From a virus: DNA of 64,000 bases. Both the position numbers and the translations under genes were made by a program. The DNA lies in the IMG/VR virus record IMGVR_UViG_3300010400_000003, positions 1-64,000 of that record; one strand, given 5' to 3'. Position 1 is the stretch's first letter. Each line of letters starts with the position of its first letter. Positions 3,534 to 57,892 of this stretch are shown here, one piece after another. The notes beneath the pieces are model-generated. The model saw only the letters and a list, made by a program, of their open reading frames with translations, was not told the DNA's origin and searched no databases.

Positions 3534-4840
3534 GGCGAAGAAACGTAGGCGAGGACCAGCCCGACTTCGGTTGAGGTCTGCGTGCTGGCATCCTGCGAGG
3601 CATCGCCGTCGCGCGCCAGTCGGATCACCCACAACTGGCCTTGCGTGAGCGCCGCGGCCCAGCCGGTCAGCACGGTCCACCCGACGCTTTCGACATCGCC
3701 GCTGGCGCCGGAGGCATCGCCCGCGAAGTCCAGGTTGATCGCCGTTCCGACCGTCCCAGCGGCGGCTGCGGAGTTGGCCACACTGGCACAGGAGAGGACG
3801 TAACGATGCGTGCCCGTGTCGCCCGCGTTGAGCCGGAACTTGAGCCGGGCGTACAGCGGGAAGCTGGCGTTGAAGTCGGGCGGGCCGTCAAAACGGTATT
3901 GGACGTAGTTCGCCGCCTGATCGGCGGAATGTGAGAATGTCGCGTGCCCGAAATCCAGCGCGGTTGTCGTCGATCCCAGCGTGGCCCCCGTGCCGTCCAC
4001 CTGATGCGGGTGCGTCAGATAGATGTAGTTGGTCGAGCCGTAATTCGTCGAGTTCGCCCAAGCCGTGTGCCCCGCCGTGCTCGTCGCCGTGAGGACCTGC
4101 CCGACCGCCGGAGCGTTGGTCGGCATTTTGGTGAACACCGAACGGTCTGAGGTAAACCCGTTCGTGCCGAAGCCGTGGAAGCCGCCATAGCGACTGACCA
4201 AGCCAACCGTTTCGAGAAATAGCGTCGAGTACCCGGTTGGCGGTGCGCCAACGATCATCGAATTGCGGGCGTTGATTGTGACCGAGTTCTTACTGACAAA
4301 CTCCGTCTGCACCAAGCTGTTGAAGGCTTGCACATCAATTCCGTAAGAACCTTCGAGGTAGGCTCCGAGAAACGATCCCTCCGCTGAGTACAATTTGTTT
4401 TGACCGAGTGAACTATTCCCCGTGCTGTAAAGCGATGCTCCCAAAAACGACCCGTCCACCGCGCTGAGGTTGAAGTTCGTTGAGTTCTCTGCAACAGCCG
4501 CGATAACAGACCCGAGATCGGGCTGAATGCCAAAATTATGAGAGCCGTCGAAATAACCGTTGAGCACTGATCCCTCCAGCACTCGGACGGTGAACTGTGT
4601 TGTGCTGTTGAAGCTGCCGATGAGCATGGACCCGTCGGTAACTGAGAAAATCCCATCCACGTCCGCCGCGTTGAATTCTCCAGCAAAGATTCCGTTCGTC
4701 GGGCTGAAGGCCATGCGGGCGGGGCGCGTGGCAAACAGGACGCCGTTGGTGCCCCTGGCGGACACACCTTGGCTGGGAGCGTCTGCGCCCATTGCCGATA
4801 GCCAAAACGACAGTATTGCCAGACAGAGTAGTTTTTTCAT
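3530..4840 (-). CDS. signal-peptide, beta-rich fibre/spike-like protein
   Basis: MKKLLCLAILSFWLSAMG leader; G/S/T/N-rich repeats; GQVLTATSTAGHTAWAN fibre-type motif. Confidence 0.65.
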   Translation of the reverse strand: MKKLLCLAILSFWLSAMGADAPSQGVSARGTNGVLFATRPARMAFSPTNGIFAGEFNAADVDGIFSVTDGSMLIGSFNSTTQFTVRVLEGSVLNGYFDGSHNFGIQPDLGSVIAAVAENSTNFNLSAVDGSFLGASLYSTGNSSLGQNKLYSAEGSFLGAYLEGSYGIDVQAFNSLVQTEFVSKNSVTINARNSMIVGAPPTGYSTLFLETVGLVSRYGGFHGFGTNGFTSDRSVFTKMPTNAPAVGQVLTATSTAGHTAWANSTNYGSTNYIYLTHPHQVDGTGATLGSTTTALDFGHATFSHSADQAANYVQYRFDGPPDFNASFPLYARLKFRLNAGDTGTHRYVLSCASVANSAAAAGTVGTAINLDFAGDASGASGDVESVGWTVLTGWAAALTQGQLWVIRLARDGDASQDASTQTSTEVGLVLAYVSSP

Positions 4841-8476: not shown

Positions 8477-9384
8477 GGGATTTTGTCGAAGTCCTGTATT
8501 TTCATCCCGTCGAACCAATCCCTTTCAGGATGGCCGTTGTGACGCGGGAAAGGTCCACCCCGAAGAACCGCCGCCCGAATGGCGCGCAGATCCCAATGAT
8601 GCTCCGTGCGCTTGCGGACGCCGAACCTCGCCAGCGCCCCGTGCCCCTTGTCCTCCGCGTCGTTCGGCCATCGCTCCTTGCTGGAACGCCGCATGGCTGG
8701 CCCGCATTTCCCGGGAGTGCGGTCCTCGATCAGCTTCAGCCGTGGATCGTACTTGAGTGGAAATCCGTTGTTCTTGAGCATCAGGCCGAAAATGCAATCC
8801 TCCATCGAAAGGCTGTCCATCAGTTCCTCGTAGCCGTTTACCTGAAGCGCCCATTCGAGCGGCAGGGCGTTGACGCATCCGAACCACCAAGAGCCGGGCG
8901 CGTCAGCCAACGCCGACGACACGAGCGCGCGGTGATCGCGGCCTTGCGGAGAACGCGGGTCGCTACCGTCCAGCGTGCCCGGATCGGCTATGATGCCGCT
9001 CTCGACAACCATGCCGTGCCGCTTCTCGTAGCTGCCGCACACACCGTAGCCGCCGGCCATTGCGTCCTCGACGGCTGCGCGCCAGCCAGGAAGCAGGACG
9101 CCGCGATCGTCACAGAACATCACCCATTCAGTGCGGCAAAGGCAAATGCCGGTGTTCGCCGCGTTGCTCTTGGCCCACCACTGGTCTTTGGTCAGGCGGT
9201 GAGGACCCTGCCAGACTGTTGGTTTCGGCGGATGGAAAGTTGCGGCGTGCCAGCCTGCGTAATTCTCTAGGCCGAGACCGATGACGATAATCGGGCAATC
9301 ACTCTCACGCCGAACGCTGTCGTATAGCCACTGGAACTCCGGCTCGTGGCGGGCGGTCGTGAACACTATGGAGAACGCGCTCAT
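8473..9384 (-). CDS. GT2/GT-A glycosyltransferase
   Basis: AANTGICLCRTEWVMFCDD, VNGYEE, EDCIFG. Confidence 0.85.
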   Translation of the reverse strand: MSAFSIVFTTARHEPEFQWLYDSVRRESDCPIIVIGLGLENYAGWHAATFHPPKPTVWQGPHRLTKDQWWAKSNAANTGICLCRTEWVMFCDDRGVLLPGWRAAVEDAMAGGYGVCGSYEKRHGMVVESGIIADPGTLDGSDPRSPQGRDHRALVSSALADAPGSWWFGCVNALPLEWALQVNGYEELMDSLSMEDCIFGLMLKNNGFPLKYDPRLKLIEDRTPGKCGPAMRRSSKERWPNDAEDKGHGALARFGVRKRTEHHWDLRAIRAAVLRGGPFPRHNGHPERDWFDGMKIQDFDKIP

Positions 9385-10004
9385 TTCAGCTTTTGGAACA
9401 CCGCCCAATCGTCTCGCTCGGCTCCAGATGACTTCACGACTCGAAACAACTCCGTGCATCCTGCCGCAAGCAGTGTGTCCACCGATTTCGTCACTTCGCC
9501 GCCGTCCCAATGAAGGTCATCGAGCACGATGAACCCGCCGTCGCGGACGTTCGGCGCGAACCTCTGAACGTCACGCATCGCCTGCGCTCCATGATTTCCG
9601 TCTACGTGCAAGAGTCCTATTGTTGCTGGCGGCGTCACGTCATCCGACCGCTTGCGAATCAATCGTGTCACGTTCTGCAACGCCATGCGGTTCACTTGGT
9701 CAAGGAAGTAGTCGTGCATCCTTTTGTGATTCTCGGCGGACCCCCACCACGCCACGTTTGCCGGCCCCTGCCCCTCGATGGACGCCGCCGGCTCATATGG
9801 GTCAATCCCGATCACCATGCCGTGCCCGATCTCCCGGCAGGCCAGCGCCATCGGCAGGAGGCTCTTGCCGGACCAGACTCCGATTTCGACGATAATGTCC
9901 GGGCGCGTGCCGATCACTAGCGAGGCGAGCGTCTTGGCCTTGGCCTCAGTACACCATCCGTGCGGCGAGGCGCACACTTCGGCGATTTGGTCGTAGAGGT
10001 TCAT
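9381..10004 (-). CDS. class I SAM-dependent methyltransferase (Methyltransf_24-like)
   Basis: IVEIGVWSGKS, IGIDP, LHVDGNH, GGFIVLDD. Confidence 0.9.
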   Translation of the reverse strand: MNLYDQIAEVCASPHGWCTEAKAKTLASLVIGTRPDIIVEIGVWSGKSLLPMALACREIGHGMVIGIDPYEPAASIEGQGPANVAWWGSAENHKRMHDYFLDQVNRMALQNVTRLIRKRSDDVTPPATIGLLHVDGNHGAQAMRDVQRFAPNVRDGGFIVLDDLHWDGGEVTKSVDTLLAAGCTELFRVVKSSGAERDDWAVFQKLK

Positions 10005-10951
10005 GCGTCGAGCGGGCTTTTGACGGACATCGCTTCCGCGTGGCAATAGCCGATGGTGGTTTCGATTTGCTTGTGCCCCATCGCCTCCTGCAATGCCTTG
10101 AGGTTTGTCCCTCGGTCCAAGCAATGCGTGGCGTAGGCGTGCCGCAATTCATGGGGCAGCACCATGATGCCGAGCTTGCGGCGCGCTTCCTTGACGCCCT
10201 GCTGCACATTCGCTTCGTGCATCCGGTAGCGCACGATCTCACCCGTGCGCGGATGTTTGCAGGGATACCGTTGCGGGAAGAGCCAGGCCCAGGGCCAGGC
10301 GAAACGATACTCGGGATACTTCTTCGCCAGTTGTCCGGGAATCTCCAAAGGGAGGCGCGCCACGACATCGCGCTGCCACACGGCCCGCGCGTAATCCGTC
10401 TGCGCTTGAATTTCCTCCGTCAGTGAACACGGCAAGGCTACCACGCGATCCTTGCCGCCCTTCGCGCCTTTGAGCATCACGCGACCATTCGTCAAGTCCA
10501 CATCCTTGATGCGCAGATTCAATGGCTCGCTCACACGCAAACCGCAACCGTAAAGCAGGCGCACAATCAGGTTGACCGGATAACCTCCCACGTCGCGCAC
10601 GGCGGCGATCAGGCGGCGCGTTTCGTCCACGGTGGGCGCGTGGCGAAGCTGGATCGGGCGGCTCTCCCGTAACGCCTGGACGTTCTTCAACTCGACTCCG
10701 AGCACGTCTTTGTAGAAGAACAGGATGGCATTGAACGCCTGATTCTGTGTGCTGGCCGAGACGTTTTGATTTAGCGAGAGTTCAGTGAGAAACCGTTCCA
10801 ACTTCTGTTCACTGGTTAACTCCGTCGGTAGATGCTTCAGGGCGCGGATGTAGCGGGCAAGCCAGTGCAAATAGGTTTGCTCCGTAGCAATGGCCTTGTG
10901 TTGGCGGCGGATAACGGCGCGAGTGCGCTCAATGGCTTCAATGGGGTTCAT
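10001..10951 (-). CDS. intI: integron integrase (IntI-type tyrosine recombinase)
   Basis: VSASTQNQAFNAILFFY, LLYGCGLRVSE, KGGKDR, integron-specific insert LAKKYP..W.WAWLFP, HELRHAYATH, MGH..TTIGYCH, SPLD end. Confidence 0.92.
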   Translation of the reverse strand: MNPIEAIERTRAVIRRQHKAIATEQTYLHWLARYIRALKHLPTELTSEQKLERFLTELSLNQNVSASTQNQAFNAILFFYKDVLGVELKNVQALRESRPIQLRHAPTVDETRRLIAAVRDVGGYPVNLIVRLLYGCGLRVSEPLNLRIKDVDLTNGRVMLKGAKGGKDRVVALPCSLTEEIQAQTDYARAVWQRDVVARLPLEIPGQLAKKYPEYRFAWPWAWLFPQRYPCKHPRTGEIVRYRMHEANVQQGVKEARRKLGIMVLPHELRHAYATHCLDRGTNLKALQEAMGHKQIETTIGYCHAEAMSVKSPLDA

Positions 10952-10969
10952 GCCGTCAATATACGAAAG

Positions 10970-10993
10970 GCCATAGCTTAATCAATGTTCGAC
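10970..10993 (+). other. putative attI site, crossover G|TTCGAC at 10987
   Basis: GTTCGAC is the exact complement of attC1 R'' GTCGAAC; 36 bp from the intI start. Confidence 0.75.
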
Positions 10994-11244
10994 AAAAGCG
11001 CCTTCGCACGTTTCATCATGTCCCGATGTTTTCCGGTTGGCGGCTCATCCACAGCCATTTCGTATTTCTCCATCGCGGCCACCATTTCAGAACACAGCGC
11101 CTCAAGCGCGTCGTGTCGCTTCACCTTCCGATGCCACTCGCGGTAGAGTTTGCCACTCAGCCGAGCACCCGATCCCGGTTTTGCGATGTTGTCAAAGTTG
11201 TTGCTCATAATTTGTCGAACCATGCGCTTCAGCGAACGGCGCAT
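10978..11244 (-). CDS. cassette 1 hypothetical protein (alternative start 11208)
   Basis: ORF antisense to attC; stop codon lies in attI. Confidence 0.7.
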   Translation of the reverse strand: MRRSLKRMVRQIMSNNFDNIAKPGSGARLSGKLYREWHRKVKRHDALEALCSEMVAAMEKYEMAVDEPPTGKHRDMMKRAKALLSNID

Positions 11245-11303
11245 GAGTGTTTCAGTTTGCAGGCGGCGTCTCTGGTGCGCCGTCTCTGAGCTTGGTGTTC
11301 GGA
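11214..11303 (+). repeat. attC1
   Basis: GTCGAAC-5nt-GCTTCAGCGAACGGCGC...GCGCCGTCTCTGAGC-5nt-GTTCGGA. Confidence 0.88.
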
Positions 11304-11608
11304 GACTCGGCTTGCATGATGACTCGCGCAAAAGTGCGCAGGTTGAATTCCACCGTTTCTTGTGTCGTCCATAGGCGGTCATCAGCAGCCCATTCTTTCA
11401 CAGCCTTTTCCTGTGCAGCGTTTAGGACTATCGGGACTGCCCTGATTGAGCCGTCTGGCTGGAGTGCGATTGTAAGCGGTTCGCCGCTCGCCAGCATTCG
11501 TTCCAGTTCTTCGATGGTAGGTCTTGGTCTTTCGACCGTCTCCGAACCAGTCGCTGGAGCGAATCCGGCGGGGCGCTTTGATTGTTCAGAGTCAGTTTCC
11601 ATATTCAT
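11252..11608 (-). CDS. cassette 2 hypothetical protein
   Basis: starts in attC2 loop, ends in attC1 loop. Confidence 0.75.
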   Translation of the reverse strand: MNMETDSEQSKRPAGFAPATGSETVERPRPTIEELERMLASGEPLTIALQPDGSIRAVPIVLNAAQEKAVKEWAADDRLWTTQETVEFNLRTFARVIMQAESPNTKLRDGAPETPPAN

Positions 11609-11653
11609 GTCTTTCGTTGTTCGCCGCCGGATTCGCTCAGCTTATCGTTAGGT
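11541..11653 (+). repeat. attC2
   Basis: TCCGAAC-5nt-GCTGGAGCGAATCCGGCGG...CCGCCGGATTCGCTCAGC-5nt-GTTAGGT. Confidence 0.9.
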
Positions 11654-11973
11654 GCTTTCGGTGCAGGTATCTCTTTCCACCCTTCTCCTGTCGGGCAGTC
11701 TTTCGTCTCGCAATACCAGCTTCCGCCACGACCGTTGCATTGAGGGCACGCAACCCAGTCGCCTGGGTCGTAGAAATTCGGGTCGTCCTCGTAAGCGTCA
11801 TAATATCCGTCCTCGCACCCCAGACCGCCACATTCGCCCCACTCCATTTCGCAGTGGCACACAGCGCATATCATCGCACCATCAGACCCACGATACATCG
11901 CACCTAACAAATCCTTGGAAGCAACAGCCGGGGGCTGGGACTGTTGCTGTGGCGTTTCAATTTTTGAGTCCAT
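11605..11973 (-). CDS. cassette 3 Cys-rich (DnaJ-like Zn-finger) protein
   Basis: CAVC, C..LGC, CPQCNGRGG; starts in attC3, ends in attC2. Confidence 0.75.
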   Translation of the reverse strand: MDSKIETPQQQSQPPAVASKDLLGAMYRGSDGAMICAVCHCEMEWGECGGLGCEDGYYDAYEDDPNFYDPGDWVACPQCNGRGGSWYCETKDCPTGEGWKEIPAPKAPNDKLSESGGEQRKT

Positions 11974-12009
11974 AATTATTCGCGGCTGTGCTTCAAGTCA
12001 GTGTTAGGT
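11902..12009 (+). repeat. attC3
   Basis: ACCTAAC-5nt-CTTGGAAGCAACAGCCG...CGGCTGTGCTTCAAG-5nt-GTTAGGT. Confidence 0.9.
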
Positions 12010-12314
12010 GAGCCTAGCGGCAGCACTCCTTCTTCGGGGTATTCATCGAAGTAGGCGATGTGCTTGTGAGGCGGCACTTGGCATTTCTGTTCTTCATCCC
12101 AGACGCCTTTCTTCGGCCATGCGGCGATTTTGATTTCCGTCTCGCGCTCCTCGACCTTTTCACTGGCGGTCGGCTCTTGGACTACCAGCCCGCAGAATTG
12201 TGCGAGGTCGCGGATTTCATCTATTGTGAGCGTCAGATGCGGCTCACCTAACCCGTCAGTGGAGCGCGACGTGGCGGGGCTTTCCGGCATAGTTGCTTGA
12301 TCGGCGTCACTCAT
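11976..12314 (-). CDS. cassette 4 hypothetical protein
   Basis: starts in attC4, ends in attC3. Confidence 0.75.
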   Translation of the reverse strand: MSDADQATMPESPATSRSTDGLGEPHLTLTIDEIRDLAQFCGLVVQEPTASEKVEERETEIKIAAWPKKGVWDEEQKCQVPPHKHIAYFDEYPEEGVLPLGSPNTDLKHSRE

Positions 12315-12374
12315 TTTATTTCCTTCTGTGAGCCGCAGGCGTCAGCCGCCACGCCGCTCACTTTGGCGTTCGGC
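12246..12374 (+). repeat. attC4
   Basis: ACCTAAC-5nt-AGTGGAGCGCGACGTGGCGG...CCGCCACGCCGCTCACT-5nt-GTTCGGC. Confidence 0.88.
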
Positions 12375-12640
12375 TCTGTCGTCTCCCAGAAGTCCATGTG
12401 GAAGATCAAGCCCGTTGACGTGCCTTTGGTGATTATTTTGACCATTGCTTTGTCGCGCTTTCCAAATCCGATGACGATGCCTTCGGAAGCTCCGGGATTT
12501 GCCCTGCCCCTGCCCTTGTTCATGCCTTGACTGATTGCCAAAGGCGTCACCTTTACACGCATCCCCCATTGGAATTTGTCACGAGCCGAACCATCCGATG
12601 CAGGCGACGTGGCGGGCGCTGGTAGTTTTAAGTCATTCAT
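12311..12640 (-). CDS. cassette 5 hypothetical protein (possible SH3-like barrel)
   Basis: starts in attC5, ends in attC4; FQWGMRVKV..EGIVIGF pattern. Confidence 0.72.
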   Translation of the reverse strand: MNDLKLPAPATSPASDGSARDKFQWGMRVKVTPLAISQGMNKGRGRANPGASEGIVIGFGKRDKAMVKIITKGTSTGLIFHMDFWETTEPNAKVSGVAADACGSQKEIK

Positions 12641-12691
12641 AAATTCGGAGGCGCGGGTTAATCGGCCACGCGCCTGATCTGGTCGTTAAAA
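12585..12691 (+). repeat. attC5
   Basis: GCCGAAC-5nt-GATGCAGGCGACGTGGC...GCCACGCGCCTGATC-5nt-GTTAAAA. Confidence 0.88.
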
Positions 12692-24640: not shown

Positions 24641-26275
24641 TCAGTCGGCATGGGGACTCCTTGGCTCGTCGGCGTTTTCAATTATTCGCTCGTTGATCGT
24701 CATTTTGCTTCCGAAGAAGTTGCACGGGATGGTGAGTCCGGCGCCGCCCTTGGTGCTTTTCAGAACCTTAACCGTCAAGAGCGTCGGGTCTTTCTCAGTG
24801 CGCCATGCTCCAATGACCAGGCCCGCCGAGTTCTCCAATGCGCCGGAGTCTTTGCCGGAGTGGAGCGTGATTTCGTCGTCACCGGATCGGCCAACCTGGG
24901 ACGCGATCACGATGATCGTTTTGGTCATCTTGGCGATCACCTTCAAGCCCTCGGCGGCGTCGCTGGTTTTCTGGTATCGGTCGCCTCGCCCTTGAAGTAG
25001 CTGAACGTAATCCACGAGCACCAACACGGGCTTGCATCCGATTTTCAACTCGCTGCGAATTATCAGGTGCTCCAAGTCCTCCAGCGTCAACCTCGACTCC
25101 GGGCAGACGAACAGGTTCGGGAACTGCCTCATCACCGCGTCTCGCCCGAACGACCCACCACCGCGATATTCCGTCTCAATGTCCACGCAGTCGAGGCCGG
25201 CGCGGATGGCGAAGAACCGCTCGTAAACCAACTCGATTGGAAGCTCCATCTCGAACAGTAGGGATTTCAGGTCGGAGCGCACGGCGAGATTTTGAAGCAT
25301 GGCGGTCTTACCGGCGCCGGTGTCCCCGAGCAGGAGCACCAGTTCTCCTGGAATTATCGAACGGATTTTCCCCCGAAAAGATGGCAGCCAGTTCCCAAGA
25401 TCAAGCGACACCACGCGCGACTGGTCCACCTGCTTCTTGTACATCGGCTCGATGTCGGCCATTGAGTAAACCGGCAAGCGATGGCCTCCGACGTGCGGCA
25501 CGGCCGCCGCGGAGAGTTCGTCCAGAGCGTGCTTCGCGTCCAGCCCCACCTTGAACGTGGCGATGTAGTCGGAAACGTCCTTGACGGTGGATATTTTCAC
25601 GAACCTCACCGACCTCGCCTTGGTCGCCACGGAATCGTAAACCAACTGGATGTGCTTCCTACCCGCATCGTCGTTGTCGCCGCACAGGATGATTTCCTTG
25701 CCGGACAGTCGCTCCGTGTAGGCGTCGAGCCACTTTCCAGCCCCTCCGACGTTGCACGTCGCGCAGAAACCCAGCAGGGCCAAGCTGTCGGCGTCCTTCT
25801 CCCCCTCGACGATCCATACCGTCTCCGATTTGATAACCTCTGGCAGCCGATACAGCACCCGCTCGACGCCATCCATGCTCCAAACCCACTCTCCACCTAC
25901 GGCGTGGCGCTGGCGGAACGACTTAGGTTTCAGCCGTATGGCCTGGTAAACCTCAACCCCCAAGGCGTCGGTGTAACTGTAAACCTTCTCGATCACCGGC
26001 TTTTCCTTTGGCGCCACAGGAAGCTGCTGGCCGTTGGCGTGCCTGTTAGTTGGCGCACGCTCCCCGGCGAACAGGTCGCGCAAGGAAAGCCCCATCGCTC
26101 CAACAACCGCGTGCGCCGTGCATCCGGCGAAGCATTTCAGGAGGACCCCGCCATCAGTCCCGCGACCGATGGAGAGGGATGCCGAGCCATCGTCGTGCGC
26201 TGGGCACTTCGCCATCACGCCTTTGGCCGTCTTGGTGGACTTGTCGAACCTGGATATGAAATCCTCGTAGGTCAT
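24641..26275 (-). CDS. primase (Zn-binding + TOPRIM) / DnaB-like helicase fusion
   Basis: CPAHDD..SL...CFAGC; VEGEKDAD; DND; GDTGAGKT; VDYVQL; SQ. Confidence 0.9.
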   Translation of the reverse strand: MTYEDFISRFDKSTKTAKGVMAKCPAHDDGSASLSIGRGTDGGVLLKCFAGCTAHAVVGAMGLSLRDLFAGERAPTNRHANGQQLPVAPKEKPVIEKVYSYTDALGVEVYQAIRLKPKSFRQRHAVGGEWVWSMDGVERVLYRLPEVIKSETVWIVEGEKDADSLALLGFCATCNVGGAGKWLDAYTERLSGKEIILCGDNDDAGRKHIQLVYDSVATKARSVRFVKISTVKDVSDYIATFKVGLDAKHALDELSAAAVPHVGGHRLPVYSMADIEPMYKKQVDQSRVVSLDLGNWLPSFRGKIRSIIPGELVLLLGDTGAGKTAMLQNLAVRSDLKSLLFEMELPIELVYERFFAIRAGLDCVDIETEYRGGGSFGRDAVMRQFPNLFVCPESRLTLEDLEHLIIRSELKIGCKPVLVLVDYVQLLQGRGDRYQKTSDAAEGLKVIAKMTKTIIVIASQVGRSGDDEITLHSGKDSGALENSAGLVIGAWRTEKDPTLLTVKVLKSTKGGAGLTIPCNFFGSKMTINERIIENADEPRSPHAD

Positions 26276-27081
26276 ATCGCAACGCTCTTTCCCTTGCGGA
26301 TTTCGTGTGGTTGAGTTTTTGGCTTGGGGGGAGACATCGGGCGACCGTCTGATTCCCACTTGGTTTTCACCCTGACCATCACCGACCGAGCGTTGTGGAT
26401 CGGCCTTTGGTTGTGATCCCTCCATCCGCAGCCCTCCATTTCGTGGAACCAGTCAACCGCCTTCCACTCAGCCAACCCGATCATTACGGCGGTCGCCTTC
26501 ACCTCGGAGAGAGACATGCGCGAAACGACTTCCGGGAACGCTCTCTCACTCCCAGCAGTACTTGGTTCTGGTTCTGGTTCTGGTTTGGTCAACGTAACGT
26601 TGGACGTAACGTTCGACGTTACGTTGTTTGTGTCCAAATCTTGGACGGTTTTACCGTGCTTTTGTGGATTACTAAGTTCTCGGCCCTTTTTTTCCACGCC
26701 AACGTCGTTACCGACGTTCAACGTAACGTTCCTCTTAACGAGCCTCGCGGCCGTGGCGGCGGATGTCTGGTTGTATCGGTCGGTGAGCCTTTCGAGGGAT
26801 AGATTCCACTCCTTCCTGGCCCGCTTCTGATGCCATTTGCCTGATTCAAGAACGAAAAACTTGTCGTTGTCGAAGATCGTTCCCTTTGTTCTGGCCCAAG
26901 TCCCGAGTTCGCACCGGCACAGGTTTCGCATTTGCTCGTCGTCGTCTGGTATTCCCTCGCAATGCAGGTGGGACCAGTAGAACCAAACGCAGCGAAGATA
27001 TTTGAAGCCGAGAACCTCTCCCATCATTTCAACGGCGGAGAAAAAGTCGTCGCCGTAGAATGGCATGTGGGAATCCGGCAT
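26272..27081 (-). CDS. replication initiator, DUF1376/YdaU-like
   Basis: MPFYGDDF..., IPDDDEQM, WHQKRA, NVT repeats, PEPEPEP linker. Confidence 0.75.
   Translation of the reverse strand: MPDSHMPFYGDDFFSAVEMMGEVLGFKYLRCVWFYWSHLHCEGIPDDDEQMRNLCRCELGTWARTKGTIFDNDKFFVLESGKWHQKRARKEWNLSLERLTDRYNQTSAATAARLVKRNVTLNVGNDVGVEKKGRELSNPQKHGKTVQDLDTNNVTSNVTSNVTLTKPEPEPEPSTAGSERAFPEVVSRMSLSEVKATAVMIGLAEWKAVDWFHEMEGCGWRDHNQRPIHNARSVMVRVKTKWESDGRPMSPPKPKTQPHEIRKGKSVAI
26590..26730. repeat. iteron-like ACGT(A/T)ACGTT repeats (putative ori)
   Basis: copies at 26590, 26603, 26615 and 26719, inside the initiator gene. Confidence 0.55.
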
Positions 27082-38899: not shown

Positions 38900-40516
38900 T
38901 CATAGATGGATTACCGTCCCTGTGTTCTGCCGCTTCCCGACGTTCATCCGGTCCTCCTGCGTGATGATTTCCTCCGCGCACTCGGCGATCAACGGGTAGC
39001 TCAAGGCGTCGAAGATGTGCTTGTTCTCGTCGTTGACGACGAAATTGAGCCGGCCAGCGCCTTTCTTGAGGTCGCGCAGCATCCGCTGGACGGCCACGCA
39101 TTGGGCGCTCACATGCAGCCGGCCTTGGGAGAGCAGTTTCTTGACGAGATTGATCCGCGCGCGAACCGAGCCGTTCGGCTTTGGCACTCCAATGACGGTT
39201 AGGCGGCCCTTGGAAGCGGCGAGGATTTCCAGCGCCGTGTAGGTGTTTCCGGCCGCGCTGTACTTCTCCAGCGCCGACGAGTCGGAATACGACGCCTCCA
39301 GATTGAACTCACGCCCGGAGTCGGACTCAATGTCCTCGATCAACCCCATGAAGGCGATCGTGAAATCCTCGATGGACACCCAATCGCCATGCCTGTCAGC
39401 GAAGTTCTCCATCTTGCCCGACTTGCCGACGCTCTCAAGTTCTTCGAGGACGTTGAAGTGCTTGCGGTCGCCGATGTAGAGGCGGTCAATGATGACGCCC
39501 GCGTGGTTGGCGTCGCCAGGGTCGAGGCCCGTCACCAAGTCAATCGAGCCGCGTGATGGCTTGATGACCTCGTAATCGTCCTCGCTGGCGAACTCGATGC
39601 TGCCCAAGACGTGGATCGCCGGTTTGAAGAACGACCGGAAGTGCCGCGACTGGTCGCCGTCGCCCCAAATCCATTTGCCCATCACATCTCGCGCGTACAG
39701 GCCGGGATCGTGCCGGCACTGCTCTTTGAGTTGGCGCAGCAGCCTCGGGTCGAGGCGCAGATTGTCCTCCGGGATCATGGTGATAACCTGCCGCTCGGCC
39801 ATTGACTGCCGCCAGTCCGGCTGCGGCAACGGCTCGTAACCCTCAGCTTCGCAGCCGGCGACGTATTCATCGTAGGACAGCTTTGGCTCGACGAACCACG
39901 TCTTGTAAATCCATGAGTCCGGACCGCGGGGAGACGGATTGGTGTCGGCAATCCACAGGTGATCTTCGTATCTCAGATGCGGCATCCGCAGGCACGCCGA
40001 GGTGGTCGAGAGCACAATCCGGTCGGAGTCCTCCTTGTCGAACGCCATCAACTCGGGAAAGTAAATGCCGCTGAACTCCTGAGACTTCACCTTGTCAACG
40101 ACATCGGGAACGTGGTCGAGCGAGAACAGCCGGCACTCGGATTCTCCGCCGTAACGGTTGCGGATGCTGAAATAAGGCGTGCGCGTGTCGCCGATGACTT
40201 TCCACCCGGGTTTGCCGTCGTTGTTGAAGCTCGTGTAATTGAAGCCAATACCGGCGCCGATCCATTCCGGGATGGTGACGCGGTGGAGGCTCTGCCAAGT
40301 GCCGCCCTCCTTCGAGTTCTTGATCGTTGGCGCGAACATGGCGAAGCTGGCGCCGGGAGTGTCGTACATGTGGCGGACGATTCGATGGAGCACCGCCCAG
40401 GTCTTGGCTGAAAATCTCGGGCCTTCAACGAGCAGAAACCGCGCGGTCGAATTGAACACATCCCATTGCAGACCGTGCTTGTTTGCGTTGAGGTCAGGAG
40501 CCCACGGTTGCGACAT
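38900..40516 (-). CDS. terL: terminase large subunit
   Basis: GPRFSAKT Walker A, IYFPE Walker B, DTNP, GLDPG nuclease motif, KHIFDALSY. Confidence 0.88.
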   Translation of the reverse strand: MSQPWAPDLNANKHGLQWDVFNSTARFLLVEGPRFSAKTWAVLHRIVRHMYDTPGASFAMFAPTIKNSKEGGTWQSLHRVTIPEWIGAGIGFNYTSFNNDGKPGWKVIGDTRTPYFSIRNRYGGESECRLFSLDHVPDVVDKVKSQEFSGIYFPELMAFDKEDSDRIVLSTTSACLRMPHLRYEDHLWIADTNPSPRGPDSWIYKTWFVEPKLSYDEYVAGCEAEGYEPLPQPDWRQSMAERQVITMIPEDNLRLDPRLLRQLKEQCRHDPGLYARDVMGKWIWGDGDQSRHFRSFFKPAIHVLGSIEFASEDDYEVIKPSRGSIDLVTGLDPGDANHAGVIIDRLYIGDRKHFNVLEELESVGKSGKMENFADRHGDWVSIEDFTIAFMGLIEDIESDSGREFNLEASYSDSSALEKYSAAGNTYTALEILAASKGRLTVIGVPKPNGSVRARINLVKKLLSQGRLHVSAQCVAVQRMLRDLKKGAGRLNFVVNDENKHIFDALSYPLIAECAEEIITQEDRMNVGKRQNTGTVIHL

Positions 40517-40568
40517 GCGCCCAAAATAGCCCTTGCGCGGGGCGGGCGGCAAGTCTTAGAGTCGCGGC
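40517..40568. promoter_or_regulatory. overlapping divergent leaderless promoters
   Basis: plus strand TTGCGC-18-TAGAGT-6-GTG; minus strand TTGCCG-18-TATTTT-6-ATG. Confidence 0.55.
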
Positions 40569-55036: not shown

Positions 55037-57892
55037 ATGGCTGCTCCAAAAGGAATCCCGGTCGCACCTCTAACTGGATTGTTGGACACGCGAAGCCTTC
55101 CAGATTTGTTGCCCCAAGGAGCATTGCGCTTTCGCCAAAACTGGCAGACGACCGGAGAAGGCAAGTTGCGCCGCGGCTGCGGGTGGACCAAGGCGTTCTC
55201 GCAAACGCCGTACAACAATCAGGATTTCCACGATCAACTGCTGCTGTTCGGCGGGACGGTGCGCGAGCCTGTTACTGGACTGTTCGAGTTCCAGTCCGCG
55301 CGCGGCATCCGCTCGTTCTGGCTGACGACACAGAGCCGGATTGCCAAACTGAACGAGACGACGGGCAACTGGAAGATCATCGCCAGCGGACTCGGCGGCG
55401 GGGCGGGAACGGATTGCAGTGGGCCGCGCTTCAAGGCGGCGAACGTCGGCGATTACGTGATCTTCACCAACGGCCACGACCGGCCCAAGGTTCACCGCCT
55501 GGAGCAACCGCCGTTCGACGACGTGCTGATTGCGGACCTGCCAGATTTGGAACTCATCGGACTGACCAAAGCGGCGCTGGCGTTCGCGTGGAAGGACATC
55601 GTAATTCTGGCCGACGTAGAGATGGACGGCGAGCGTCACCCGAACCGATTCGTCTGGTCCAACCTCAAAGACCCGCAAGGGTTTGATCCAGGCAATCCCG
55701 CCAGCATCACCGGCCAAGACGAGTTCAACTACGGCGAGCGCATCTTGGCTGGCGGACCAACGACCGCTGGCACGTTCCTGATGTACACGACGGAAGGCAT
55801 TTGGGAACTGAGCACGGTCGGCGACTCCCGCGTGTTCGTGAAGCGCGAGGCGTATCCAGGCCGCAAGGCTGATTTCACCGGCTGCCTCAAGTACCAGAAC
55901 ACGCTCGTTGACATCGGCGGCGACCACATTTACATGGCGAAGGACGGCATCTACGCCTTCAACCCGTATCGCTCGGCACCGGAGTTGATCCTGTGGCTGC
56001 ACCGCGCGTCATCCGTGCTGTTCGACGACATTGACGACAGCGCGTGCGCGGCCTCCATCGGATGGTTTCACGATTCCGAAGCGTTCTTCTCGGTCAAGCG
56101 CAACTCAGATGTCGGCTGCCCTGGAATCACGCTCCGCATCGAAACTCAGTTCAAGGTCGCCGACGTGATTGACCGCGGGTTCACAGCGGCAGCCAATTAC
56201 CGGCCGCAACCGATCCAGACCATCCGCGACTTCATTCTGGACAAACGCATCTGCGACTTGAGTGGGTTGACTGAATCGCTGCTCTCAGAGGATCTGCCGC
56301 CGCCGTTCGAGAACGAGGGCTTGCCGTCACCGCTGGCCGAACCGACGGCGGCGTTCGTGCCGCAACAGTTCTACACCGAGAATTACCAGATCATCGGAGA
56401 TGTCGTGACCGAGGATTGGAACAAGGCGACGGCAGACGCGGATTCGCTGTGCGCCCTGCTGGGCGACACGACGCTTGATGACCTGTGCATCAACTGCGAA
56501 TCCGTCTCGGTGCTCATCGCCGCGTCGTCTCGGGATTGGTGTTTGAAGCAATTCGGCGGGTTTTACCGGGAACGGTGCGCCAATCCGACAGCGACCGGGA
56601 ACTTGGAGCAAACGGTAAACCTGCTCGACTCTGGCGTGGACTTCGCGTTTGTCGTGGACGAGTCGGCGAGCCTGCCAACCGTGCGTGCGATCCTGACTTC
56701 GCTGTCGCTGACTTTGGAGGCCAATTTGAGGGCGGCGCATGTCGGCGCCGGAAGCGTGCCCAACCGATACAGCGTCGTCGCCTTCGGTTACGGCGCGGCG
56801 GCGGAGACACAGGTTGACTGGACAGACTCCGCAACGTTTGCCGCAGCCATGCCCACGCTGGGTCCAACGCATGGCGGCGGATTGGAGGAGGACGCCTACG
56901 AAGGCATTGACTTCGCGATCAACAATCTGGCGTGGCGGGACTCCGATCGGGTGACAAAACTCATCTTTTTCATCACTGACGAAGATCGAAATGTTTGGCT
57001 GTACACGAACGGCGTCGGCCAGGCGGGGCATTTTGCCAGCCTGAAAGCGCAGTTGGTTTCGGGCGGGTTCTTGCTCGCCGGCATGACGAGGGATGCGGCG
57101 GCAGGAATGAAGGATGCGTCCAGCAATCTCATCATTGCCTGCGATTCGACGGTGAACCTCGTGACGGAAGGTGACGGTAGCCAAACGTCGGCGACGGGAA
57201 AATCCTATCGCTCAGACGGCGCGGGCGGGTTTACCGAGAGCGCTGGCGTGGACACGGTATCCGCTGCGTGGGTAAGCGACAGTCCAGGCAAGCCCGACGG
57301 CGCGCAGACGGAATACTTCGATCTGCTGATGGACAAGCAGATCGCCGGTTACTGGTTTAATTACAGTCGGTACGAAAGTGGCGGGCCTGTGGCGGCGTCC
57401 GTGCTGGGAATTATCGTGCCGGTGCTGTCCGAGCGCATCCGCCTGGAACTGAACACCGAACTTTACACCTCCGCCGTCGGCAGCTACATCCTCGACGGAT
57501 ACGATTCGATCATCCGGTTCGCCCCACTCTCTCAGGAAGGCGCGCAAGTCATCGTCGAACGCTTTGGGCTGAAAGGCATTCCCGCCGTTCAGGCCGAGCC
57601 GAGAGACATCGAATTGCGTTGCGGTGTCTCAGGCCAGACGGCGGATTCAAACGACGATCACTGCCCGATTGTCTGGCTGGAACTGACGCCGAAGCAACTG
57701 CGCTGCGTGACTGACCGCACGGCGGCCCAGCACACGGCGGCCAAGACCGTGCCGGCGCAGGACATCTCGTGGCGCTTCCATCGGGTCGGAAAAGTCGTGC
57801 ATCTGGAATTGAAGATCACCGGCACGGGCGGAGATTGTGTGTTGAGCGGCGTTGTCGCGAGCGCGAAGGCGACTCCGGCGAGGAACTTCTGA
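55037..57892 (+). CDS. tail nozzle/stabilisation-type protein with inserted VWA domain
   Basis: propeller-like N-terminus (IFTNG.D.P, RFVWS..DP..FD); FVVDESAS...EDAYEGI...FITDED. Confidence 0.7.
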   Translation: MAAPKGIPVAPLTGLLDTRSLPDLLPQGALRFRQNWQTTGEGKLRRGCGWTKAFSQTPYNNQDFHDQLLLFGGTVREPVTGLFEFQSARGIRSFWLTTQSRIAKLNETTGNWKIIASGLGGGAGTDCSGPRFKAANVGDYVIFTNGHDRPKVHRLEQPPFDDVLIADLPDLELIGLTKAALAFAWKDIVILADVEMDGERHPNRFVWSNLKDPQGFDPGNPASITGQDEFNYGERILAGGPTTAGTFLMYTTEGIWELSTVGDSRVFVKREAYPGRKADFTGCLKYQNTLVDIGGDHIYMAKDGIYAFNPYRSAPELILWLHRASSVLFDDIDDSACAASIGWFHDSEAFFSVKRNSDVGCPGITLRIETQFKVADVIDRGFTAAANYRPQPIQTIRDFILDKRICDLSGLTESLLSEDLPPPFENEGLPSPLAEPTAAFVPQQFYTENYQIIGDVVTEDWNKATADADSLCALLGDTTLDDLCINCESVSVLIAASSRDWCLKQFGGFYRERCANPTATGNLEQTVNLLDSGVDFAFVVDESASLPTVRAILTSLSLTLEANLRAAHVGAGSVPNRYSVVAFGYGAAAETQVDWTDSATFAAAMPTLGPTHGGGLEEDAYEGIDFAINNLAWRDSDRVTKLIFFITDEDRNVWLYTNGVGQAGHFASLKAQLVSGGFLLAGMTRDAAAGMKDASSNLIIACDSTVNLVTEGDGSQTSATGKSYRSDGAGGFTESAGVDTVSAAWVSDSPGKPDGAQTEYFDLLMDKQIAGYWFNYSRYESGGPVAASVLGIIVPVLSERIRLELNTELYTSAVGSYILDGYDSIIRFAPLSQEGAQVIVERFGLKGIPAVQAEPRDIELRCGVSGQTADSNDDHCPIVWLELTPKQLRCVTDRTAAQHTAAKTVPAQDISWRFHRVGKVVHLELKITGTGGDCVLSGVVASAKATPARNF

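Follow-up and report, generated by a model that had tools for sequence, protein, structure and literature searches.

In the usual model of integron expression, promoterless cassettes are arranged in one orientation downstream of the promoter Pc, and the attC sites are noncoding and often obstructive. The locus described here raises the question of which strand of such an array is coding and what becomes of its reading frames at the points where cassettes are exchanged. The locus occupies positions 10001-12691 of a 64,000-nucleotide stretch of viral DNA (IMG/VR record IMGVR_UViG_3300010400_000003, positions 1 to 64,000), which, at its full length, is referred to below as the window. An initial annotation had proposed that the attC sites at 10978-12691 double as frame-locked linkers with a stop and a start codon, so that shuffling of cassettes never breaks the operon. 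We find that the locus is a complete integron, with an integrase gene (intI), an attI site and five attC hairpins of canonical polarity. Our preferred reading, to which we assign a probability of about 0.7, is that of a complete integron of canonical geometry, residing in a phage-like genome and belonging to a lineage whose cassette genes are mostly located on the bottom strand of attC, read toward intI and standardized in phase. The recombination machinery looks canonical here; the coding logic looks inverted, and the att sites look dual-coded.

All long open reading frames (ORFs) of the array are located on the minus strand, which is the attC bottom strand, and point at intI. The canonical arrangement, in which cassette ORFs follow the attC top strand and are driven by a Pc located on the attI/intI side, is not seen here, as 5 out of 5 cassette ORFs (c1 to c5) lie on the bottom strand. 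As the initial annotation had stated, and in agreement with the sequence at every coordinate, the crossover is read as an in-frame AAC (Asn) codon by each of the six minus-strand ORFs that reach a GTT box. These ORFs end in LSN-ID*, SPN-TKLRDGAPETPPAN*, APN-DKLSESGGEQRKT*, SPN-TDLKHSRE*, EPN-AKVSGVAADACGSQKEIK* and NFN-DQIRRVAD*, where the asterisk stands for the stop codon. The stops are located 6-54 nt beyond the Asn codon, between the paired arms of that hairpin (for c1, in attI), and the next start codon is found in the same loop, which was likewise part of the annotation. The distance from stop to start is −4 nt at attC2 and attC4, where the two codons share an ATGA, and +2, +7 and +17 nt at attC3, attC1 and attC5, respectively. 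In the window, upstream stops thus overlap downstream starts or are a few nucleotides away from them, as one would expect of coupled genes. On the R'' side, the GTT is used in all three phases among c1-c5. For the window alone, the chance of a common phase at the crossover is (1/3)^5 to (1/3)^6, or about 0.001-0.004.

The sixth of these ORFs is a resident glycosyltransferase-like gene, the last codons of which cross the distal crossover in phase 0. It thus follows that the ancestral attI presumably lay within the final codons of a phage gene, and that intI followed 26 nt further downstream. Judging from its sequence, the gene would end in ...NFN-ID* in attI if the cassettes were removed. The R' box of the distal attC5 site, GTTAAAA, is found once in the window and is the remnant of the right half of the original attI.

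The assignment of strands rests on the rule of Nivina et al. 2016 (PMC5027507), according to which the recombined bottom strand is the strand that carries 5'-AAC in R' and extrahelical bases on the opposite arm; its loop is purine-rich. In each attC of the window, an AAC box and a GTT box flank a stem that closes a loop of 30-60 nt; a spacer, 6 nt long on the AAC side, separates either box from the stem. The extrahelical bases are always in the 5' arm of the plus strand, namely a G or T at position 3-4 of the stem and an A some six bases beyond it. By the above rule, the minus, gene-sense strand is therefore the bottom strand. The intI gene adjoins attI with its 5' end and has the attC bottom strand as its sense strand. 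In a polarity control, 91 loci retrieved with the IntI protein were scanned for the bulged arm, and its polarity relative to intI was alike in distant proteobacterial integrons and in close relatives of the window IntI. The proteobacterial loci have their ORFs on the other strand, where many of them terminate at a TAA in R'', which is the expected arrangement; in the close relatives, long ORFs are located on the intI-sense strand. Since bulge polarity is the same and the gene strand is opposite, the geometry of recombination is canonical and the genes are reversed.

The position of the crossover is indicated by the arm that carries the extrahelical bases, by attI junctions and by homology breakpoints. 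In about 40 loci, an exact complement of the last attC GTT box is present 28-80 nt upstream of intI, and no attC follows the last gene. In these loci, the complement of the GTT box is followed by a conserved non-hairpin motif, AAC-A-N-TGATTA..., and then by a GTTCGTATAT-like sequence; in most of them, the motif supplies a TGA, TAA or TAG in phase 0, 2-3 codons past the crossover. The homology of shared cassettes stops exactly at AAC in three pairs of loci: L006/L025 (attI on one side, attC on the other), L013/L022 and L099/L104. These data argue for a crossover at AA↓C of the gene-sense strand (the arrow marks the exchange point), with IntI presumably recombining the folded bottom strand. The shift-by-one complementarity of R boxes was dropped as a discriminator of the crossover position, since linkage of a gene to its upstream attC and linkage to its downstream attC both predict it. 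The attI motif (AAC-A-N-TGATTA ... GTTCGTATAT) also fits a −35 TTGATT / −10 TATATT consensus directed toward intI. This match is probably the integrase promoter PintI overlapping the crossover, with the phase-0 stop embedded in its −35 box. A consensus scan, the only search made for such sites, revealed no promoter-like site on the plus strand of the array.

The IntI alignment was used to collect 80 further viral contigs, and in every locus the 8 kb upstream of intI were scanned. The clade set was defined by an IntI at least 38.5% identical to that of the window; it comprises phage contigs and Verrucomicrobiota-type metagenome-assembled genomes (MAGs) and contains 139 attC sites of bottom-strand polarity in 46 loci, or 129 non-redundant clusters. 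At about two-thirds of the clade sites, ORFs are located on the bottom strand, as in the window. Reading through the crossover occurs in phase 0 in 64 of the 129 clusters, in phase 1 in 5 and in phase 2 in 3; 13 clusters have their own TAA↓C stop at the cassette edge, 3 have their own TGA stop, 32 have their longest frame on the other strand, and 9 have no long frame. Random codon phase in homologous arrays had been named in advance as an outcome that would speak against the proposal, and the phase is not random: 64 of 72 non-redundant read-through ORFs are in phase 0 and 8 are in another phase. Since AAC is a favored codon, an empirical null was taken from AAC triplets inside the same ORF bodies, which are in frame in 37.3% of cases; against this value of 0.373, the 65 of 90 ORFs found in phase 0 give p = 1.9e-11.

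The acceptor side shows a matching bias. A phase-0 stop is present inside the hairpin at 127 of 135 attC sites (94%), vs. 46 of 135 for phase 1 and 65 of 135 (48%) for phase 2 (Fisher p = 8e-18, phase 0 vs. phase 2). Of these phase-0 stops, 65% are TGA, and the median tail is 12 residues. Exact NTGA stop/start overlaps are found at 32 of the 82 phase-0 junctions with a long downstream ORF (about 30 of 78, or ca. 38%, if a duplicate contig is left out), and 54 of the 82 junctions fall within −14 to +18 nt. The phase of the R''-side GTT in ORFs that start inside attC is distributed 45/18/17 and is thus not fixed in the clade either, so the constraint is specific to the crossover, as had been claimed.

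Two other claims of the annotation held in part. That cassettes have no stop codon of their own is true of the window array and fails clade-wide in the 16 of 129 clusters with their own TAA↓C or TGA. That shuffling never breaks the operon is borne out in silico for the window array; across the clade, 8 of 72 ORFs in another phase and 32 clusters with an other-strand frame reduce the claim to a strong tendency.

Five arrays from Limisphaerales MAGs (L016, L018, L019, L020 and L027) contain near-identical 91-bp attC repeats (80-98% identity) with GCCTAAC/GTTAGGC boxes. These repeats resemble the VCRs of Vibrio, and the cassettes are short, ca. 370 bp. Two other ways of finding attC sites were abandoned: an energy-only hairpin scan was unspecific in GC-rich DNA, and a MAFFT alignment of the five window sites, made as the basis of a covariance model, aligned the arms too poorly.

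Two cassette genes of the window have families of homologues. The c4 family (38 homologues) has a core from LTLT to LGSPN, with variable tails and variable loop-encoded N-termini; its sequences diverge right after ...LGSPN even at 93% core identity. The c3 family (12 homologues) is conserved up to ...APKAPN, followed by variable tails, and its leader PAVASSDLLGA, which is encoded by the upstream attC arm and R'', is conserved. Since tails past the Asn differ among close c4 and c3 homologues, the prediction that the C-terminal tail varies with the neighboring cassette was borne out. For c4, dN/dS in the minus frame is 0.11-0.17 (dS 0.56-0.71), and the other frames contain stops or are unconstrained; the minus-strand frame is under purifying selection. 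A search of viral contigs with the c4 alignment gave no match. In-frame fusions of an upstream cassette ORF with a c4 homologue were observed in L092 (L092:1123-1659) and in P0005, P0007, P0008 and P0012; in P0008/L092 and P0012, a Lar-like zinc ribbon (PF14354 in P0008) is fused to c4. The fusion frame runs through attC without a phase-0 stop; it is thus in the absence of the loop stop that in-frame fusions arise.

We propose the following organization. Taken in gene direction, a cassette opens with the 5' attC arm, which would be translated as a C-terminal tail on the gene upstream. The attC loop comes next, with a phase-0 stop and the cassette's own start overlapping or adjacent to it; the 3' arm of attC, with its extrahelical bases, and R'' would then be translated as an N-terminal leader, and the gene body comes last, ending in ...YYN-AA at the cassette edge. 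Nearly all donors read AA↓C at the crossover as an Asn codon; nearly all acceptors, whether attC or attI, supply a phase-0 stop a few codons on, beside the next start, so that any attC × attC or attI × attC exchange would recreate a terminated ORF followed by the next start. The convention would be population-wide: donors would end in ...YYN-AA, and acceptors would open with C and a short translated arm, followed by a stop beside the loop start.

As for function, the promoterless cassettes are likely transcribed together, in a single polycistron whose promoter is located distal to the array. A ribosome finishing gene n would open the 5' arm of the hairpin, and a ribosome starting gene n+1, reinitiating in the loop, would open the 3' arm; with both arms opened by ribosomes, the known attC hairpin block would be removed. 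Array anatomy, the phase rule, the conservation of stops and overlaps, the variability of tails and purifying selection on the minus frame are seen directly in the sequences; the direction of transcription, the use of the loop start codons and translational coupling are what we infer. We give about even odds to the broader proposal that this is a lineage, many of its members phage-borne, with a reading-frame standard, in which the hairpin serves as a translated inter-cistronic adaptor (tail, stop, start and leader), so that promoterless cassettes without ribosome-binding sites, antisense to attC, would be translatable in any order by termination-reinitiation under a distal promoter, and loss of the loop stop would lead to fusions such as that of the Lar-like domain with c4.

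Not all observations agree with the preferred reading, and those that weigh against it are best considered together with the alternatives. One can suppose that the crossover was mis-assigned and that these are ordinary cassettes, with the gene-sense strand as the top strand and each ORF running into its own downstream attC. The true crossover would then be the G↓TT upstream of the gene body, R'' would comprise the in-frame AAC, and the tail would be part of the same cassette as its gene. Such a view is favored by the c4 genes of L092 and the window, which share an attC3-like downstream loop (score 22, top 1% of 232 comparisons) and have no similarity upstream, the homology beginning abruptly at GTTAGGT. 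This pair hints that linkage of the gene to its downstream attC is the better fit, and it is a minority signal that we leave unexplained. When L092:1645-1743 is compared with window positions 11906-12003, the downstream attC sites are alike mainly in the loop around the ATG, which is unexpected under the favored model. In addition, c1 and c3 have an ATG 3-11 nt past the GTT box, with AGG in the box, like a canonical cassette 5' end. However, attC3-like loops of equal match quality are found beside unrelated genes in L124 and L004, and a mis-assigned crossover would leave the extrahelical bases on the wrong arm. It would also have to contend with the ca. 40 loci in which the array ends at an AAC junction and a conserved attI next to intI, with no attC past the last gene, and with the three locus pairs that lose homology exactly at AAC. 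Nor does it fit tails that diverge right after the Asn at 93% core identity, a c3 leader that is retained though encoded by the upstream arm, or a phase that is fixed at AAC and free at GTT. We regard such a mis-assignment as quite unlikely. Copies of c4 in L095, L096 and L097 are outside an attC context and were uninformative with regard to the crossover.

It is also conceivable, though unlikely, that the phase bias is real but a by-product without coupling: the R' box YYN-AAC would be accommodated most easily as Pro/Ser-Asn at a gene end, true starts would be located past R'', translation would not make use of the ATGs in the loops, and the tails would be noise that is tolerated. Indeed, c1, c3 and c5 also have an ATG just past R'', and homologues P0010, P0011, P0024 and P0052 start there; start codons were assigned by the longest-ORF rule, and a clear Shine-Dalgarno sequence is present in few loops. 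Yet box constraints leave unexplained the excess of phase-0 over phase-2 acceptor stops, the frequency of exact NTGA overlaps and the conserved phase-0 stop of attI, and AAC in the same ORF bodies is in frame in only 37% of cases. Moreover, c4 has no in-frame start past R'', and P0042 and P0050 have another residue in place of the internal Met of c3. The most skeptical view, that the minus frames are noncoding shadows of plus-strand genes in GC-rich DNA and that the 6 out of 6 is luck, could appeal to the fact that the GC content of third codon positions (GC3) fails to separate the strands in cassettes and that plus-strand ORFs of 77-134 aa exist. It is refuted by the 38 and 12 homologues of c4 and c3 with their conserved cores, by the minus-frame dN/dS, by the clade phase counts and by the empirical null (p = 1e-11 or lower), and plus-strand translations gave a weaker, shadow match only; we consider it exceedingly improbable.

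Further points count against a phase-standardized lineage with genes on the bottom strand. The attC sites were called by a custom arm-alignment scanner and not by the IntegronFinder model. The clusters that end in their own TAA↓C or TGA at the cassette edge make up ca. 12% of all clusters, and such a stop of their own terminates about 18% of cassettes. At about 25% of sites, the longest frame is that of the opposite strand, with at least one real top-strand cassette among them (L013/L022). Because of these own stops and other-strand frames, the "operon" is not uninterrupted in every array.

The features of the window integron are listed in Table 1. The IntI-specific insert LPxxLxxKYPxxxxxWxWxWLFP is recognizable in the window integrase and, together with the TIGR02249 score, identifies it as an integron-type tyrosine recombinase. 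The AAC-to-GTT spans of the five attC sites are 82-121 bp. The GTT box of each site is a perfect reverse complement of the next AAC box (7-mers, 5 out of 5 junctions, attI included). Thus, the R'' box of attC1, GTCGAAC, is perfectly complementary to the GTTCGAC of attI, which is located at 10986 and 35 nt away from the start of intI, and the R' box of attC1 matches the R'' box of attC2. An Rfam search of the attC sites returned chance-level matches only, and Pfam and PHROGs searches revealed no function for c1-c5. A lone attC-like hairpin (70 bp, score 8) is present at window positions 3802-3869, 6 kb past the 3' end of intI, with G and T bulges on the 3' arm of the plus strand; it may be a stray attC or a chance match.

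Table 1. Coordinates of the integron features in the window (AAC-to-GTT spans and GTT crossovers refer to the plus strand).
Feature	Position	Strand	AAC-to-GTT span	GTT crossover	Remarks
intI, integron integrase, 316 aa	10001..10951	-			TIGR02249, 275.5 bits (cutoff 265); Pfam Phage_integrase and SAM_4 domains
attI	10952..10993	.		10986	crossover G↓TT at 10986-10988 (+), AAC on minus strand
Cassette ORF c1	10978..11244	-			alternative start 11211; stop in attI
attC1, R'' GTCGAAC ... R' GTTCGGA	11214..11303	+	11218-11297	11297	hairpin, extra bases in + strand 5' arm; loop with c2 stop 11252-11254 and one c1 start 11242-11244
Cassette ORF c2	11252..11608	-			from ORF list
attC2	11541..11653	+	11545-11647	11647	15-bp perfect arms 11557-11571 / 11624-11638; extra G in 5' arm; loop with ATGA overlap 11605-11608 (c3 stop, c2 start)
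Cassette ORF c3, Cys-rich, may bind zinc	11605..11973	-			12 homologues
attC3	11902..12009	+	11906-12003	12003	hairpin; extra G and A in 5' arm; loop with c4 stop 11976-11978 and c3 start 11971-11973
Cassette ORF c4	11976..12314	-			38 homologues
attC4	12246..12374	+	12250-12368	12368	from hairpin scan; loop with ATGA overlap 12311-12314 (c5 stop, c4 start)
Cassette ORF c5	12311..12640	-			from ORF list
attC5, distal site	12585..12691	+	12589-12685	12685	hairpin; R' box GTTAAAA; stop of 623-aa ORF 12658-12660, at the edge of an arm, and c5 start 12638-12640
Resident glycosyltransferase-like gene, 623 aa	12658..14529	-			weak GT9 and GH130 matches

The window integron shares with canonical integrons, such as class 1 and Vibrio chromosomal ones, a TIGR02249 integrase, an attI next to the 5' end of intI, the R''/L''/L'/R' boxes of attC with an unpaired spacer, extrahelical bases in the L'' arm and a purine-rich bottom-strand loop, as well as the shift-by-one R-box complementarity typical of arrays. 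It differs in that cassette genes of canonical integrons point away from Pc at attI, whereas here they are located on the attC bottom strand and point toward intI, and in that the ORFs extend over both arms of attC and run through the point of recombination. In the inverted-integrase integrons of Treponema, intI is transcribed toward attI and is upstream of the cassettes, the genes of which are in the normal relation to attC (PMC3607928); such integrons are defined by an intI transcribed toward attI and located on the same strand as the attC top strands (PMC3607928, PMC13323075). As in Treponema, intI and the cassette genes of the window are on one strand; unlike in Treponema, transcription of intI leads away from attI, the cassettes are upstream of intI, and their genes run antisense to attC. 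The window does not fit the Treponema definition, as the start codon of intI (10951) faces the array and intI is opposite to the attC top strand.

The nearest precedent for the coding arrangement is ORF-11 of attI1, an ORF that spans the crossover and is stopped by the partner site. In ORF-11/ORF-18 of attI1, the inserted cassette supplies an in-phase stop and the terminating ribosome serves the next start (PMC8876359). ORF-11 is a single short top-strand leader ORF at attI, whereas the arrangement seen here involves every cassette gene, every attC and attI. The roles are also reversed, since here the cassette ORF is stopped by attI or attC. The attC hairpin in mRNA has been described as a barrier that translation can relieve, and termination-reinitiation has been proposed (Jacquier 2009, cited in PMC8876359; PMC11511950). 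Short ORFs in attC are occasional and belong to top-strand transcripts, whereas here both arms are systematically coding, with a stop and a start in the loop and a fixed phase. Judging by its section headings, the study of Qi et al. 2023 (PMC9892861) covers integron fragments in phages, a P1 mosaic, one complete prophage-borne integron and attC clusters; integron parts in phages are thus common to both studies, and a complete intI-attI-array in a phage-like genome is what differs here. As far as its abstract and outline go, gene orientation and the phase rule are not mentioned. Integrons in phages (PMC9892861) and translational effects at att sites are already known. In the literature, we found no account of cassette genes that lie on the bottom strand and share one phase at the crossover; with the limited coverage of subscription journals, this is weak evidence of novelty.

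The window encodes a primase/helicase, a large terminase and a virion protein (24641-26425, 38900-40552, 55037-57892), and the integron is therefore part of a phage-like genome, in which intI is located within a co-directional gene block. About 29 IMG/VR contigs (L107-L135) of 4-59 kb carry an IntI 47-73% identical to that of the window, and it appears that one group of phages recurrently carries complete integrons as a module. The sample also contains another related integron contig (11,154 nt), which is similar to parts of intI and to the R'' region of attC5; its cassette content differs, as 1433 nt in this contig correspond to 2285 nt in the window. The next gene downstream of intI (window positions 9381-10124, same strand) matches a family of phage DNA methyltransferases (phrog_2675, E = 1.6e-14). 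Palindromic repeats of the ACGTAACGTT type are clustered at positions 26590-26730, immediately upstream of the primase/helicase gene; this could be an origin or iteron region.

The three-part rule described here (an AA↓C read in phase 0, a loop that contains a phase-0 stop, and overlaps of the NTGA type) is testable and ties site-specific recombination to translation. If the rule holds, it would explain how shuffled cassettes escape polarity and hairpin blocks, and it predicts that protein termini vary with context and that gene fusions arise readily. Pipelines that assume top-strand ORFs or drop attC sites overlapping coding sequences would then mishandle such arrays, and complete integrons would be a recurrent accessory module of a soil/freshwater phage group.

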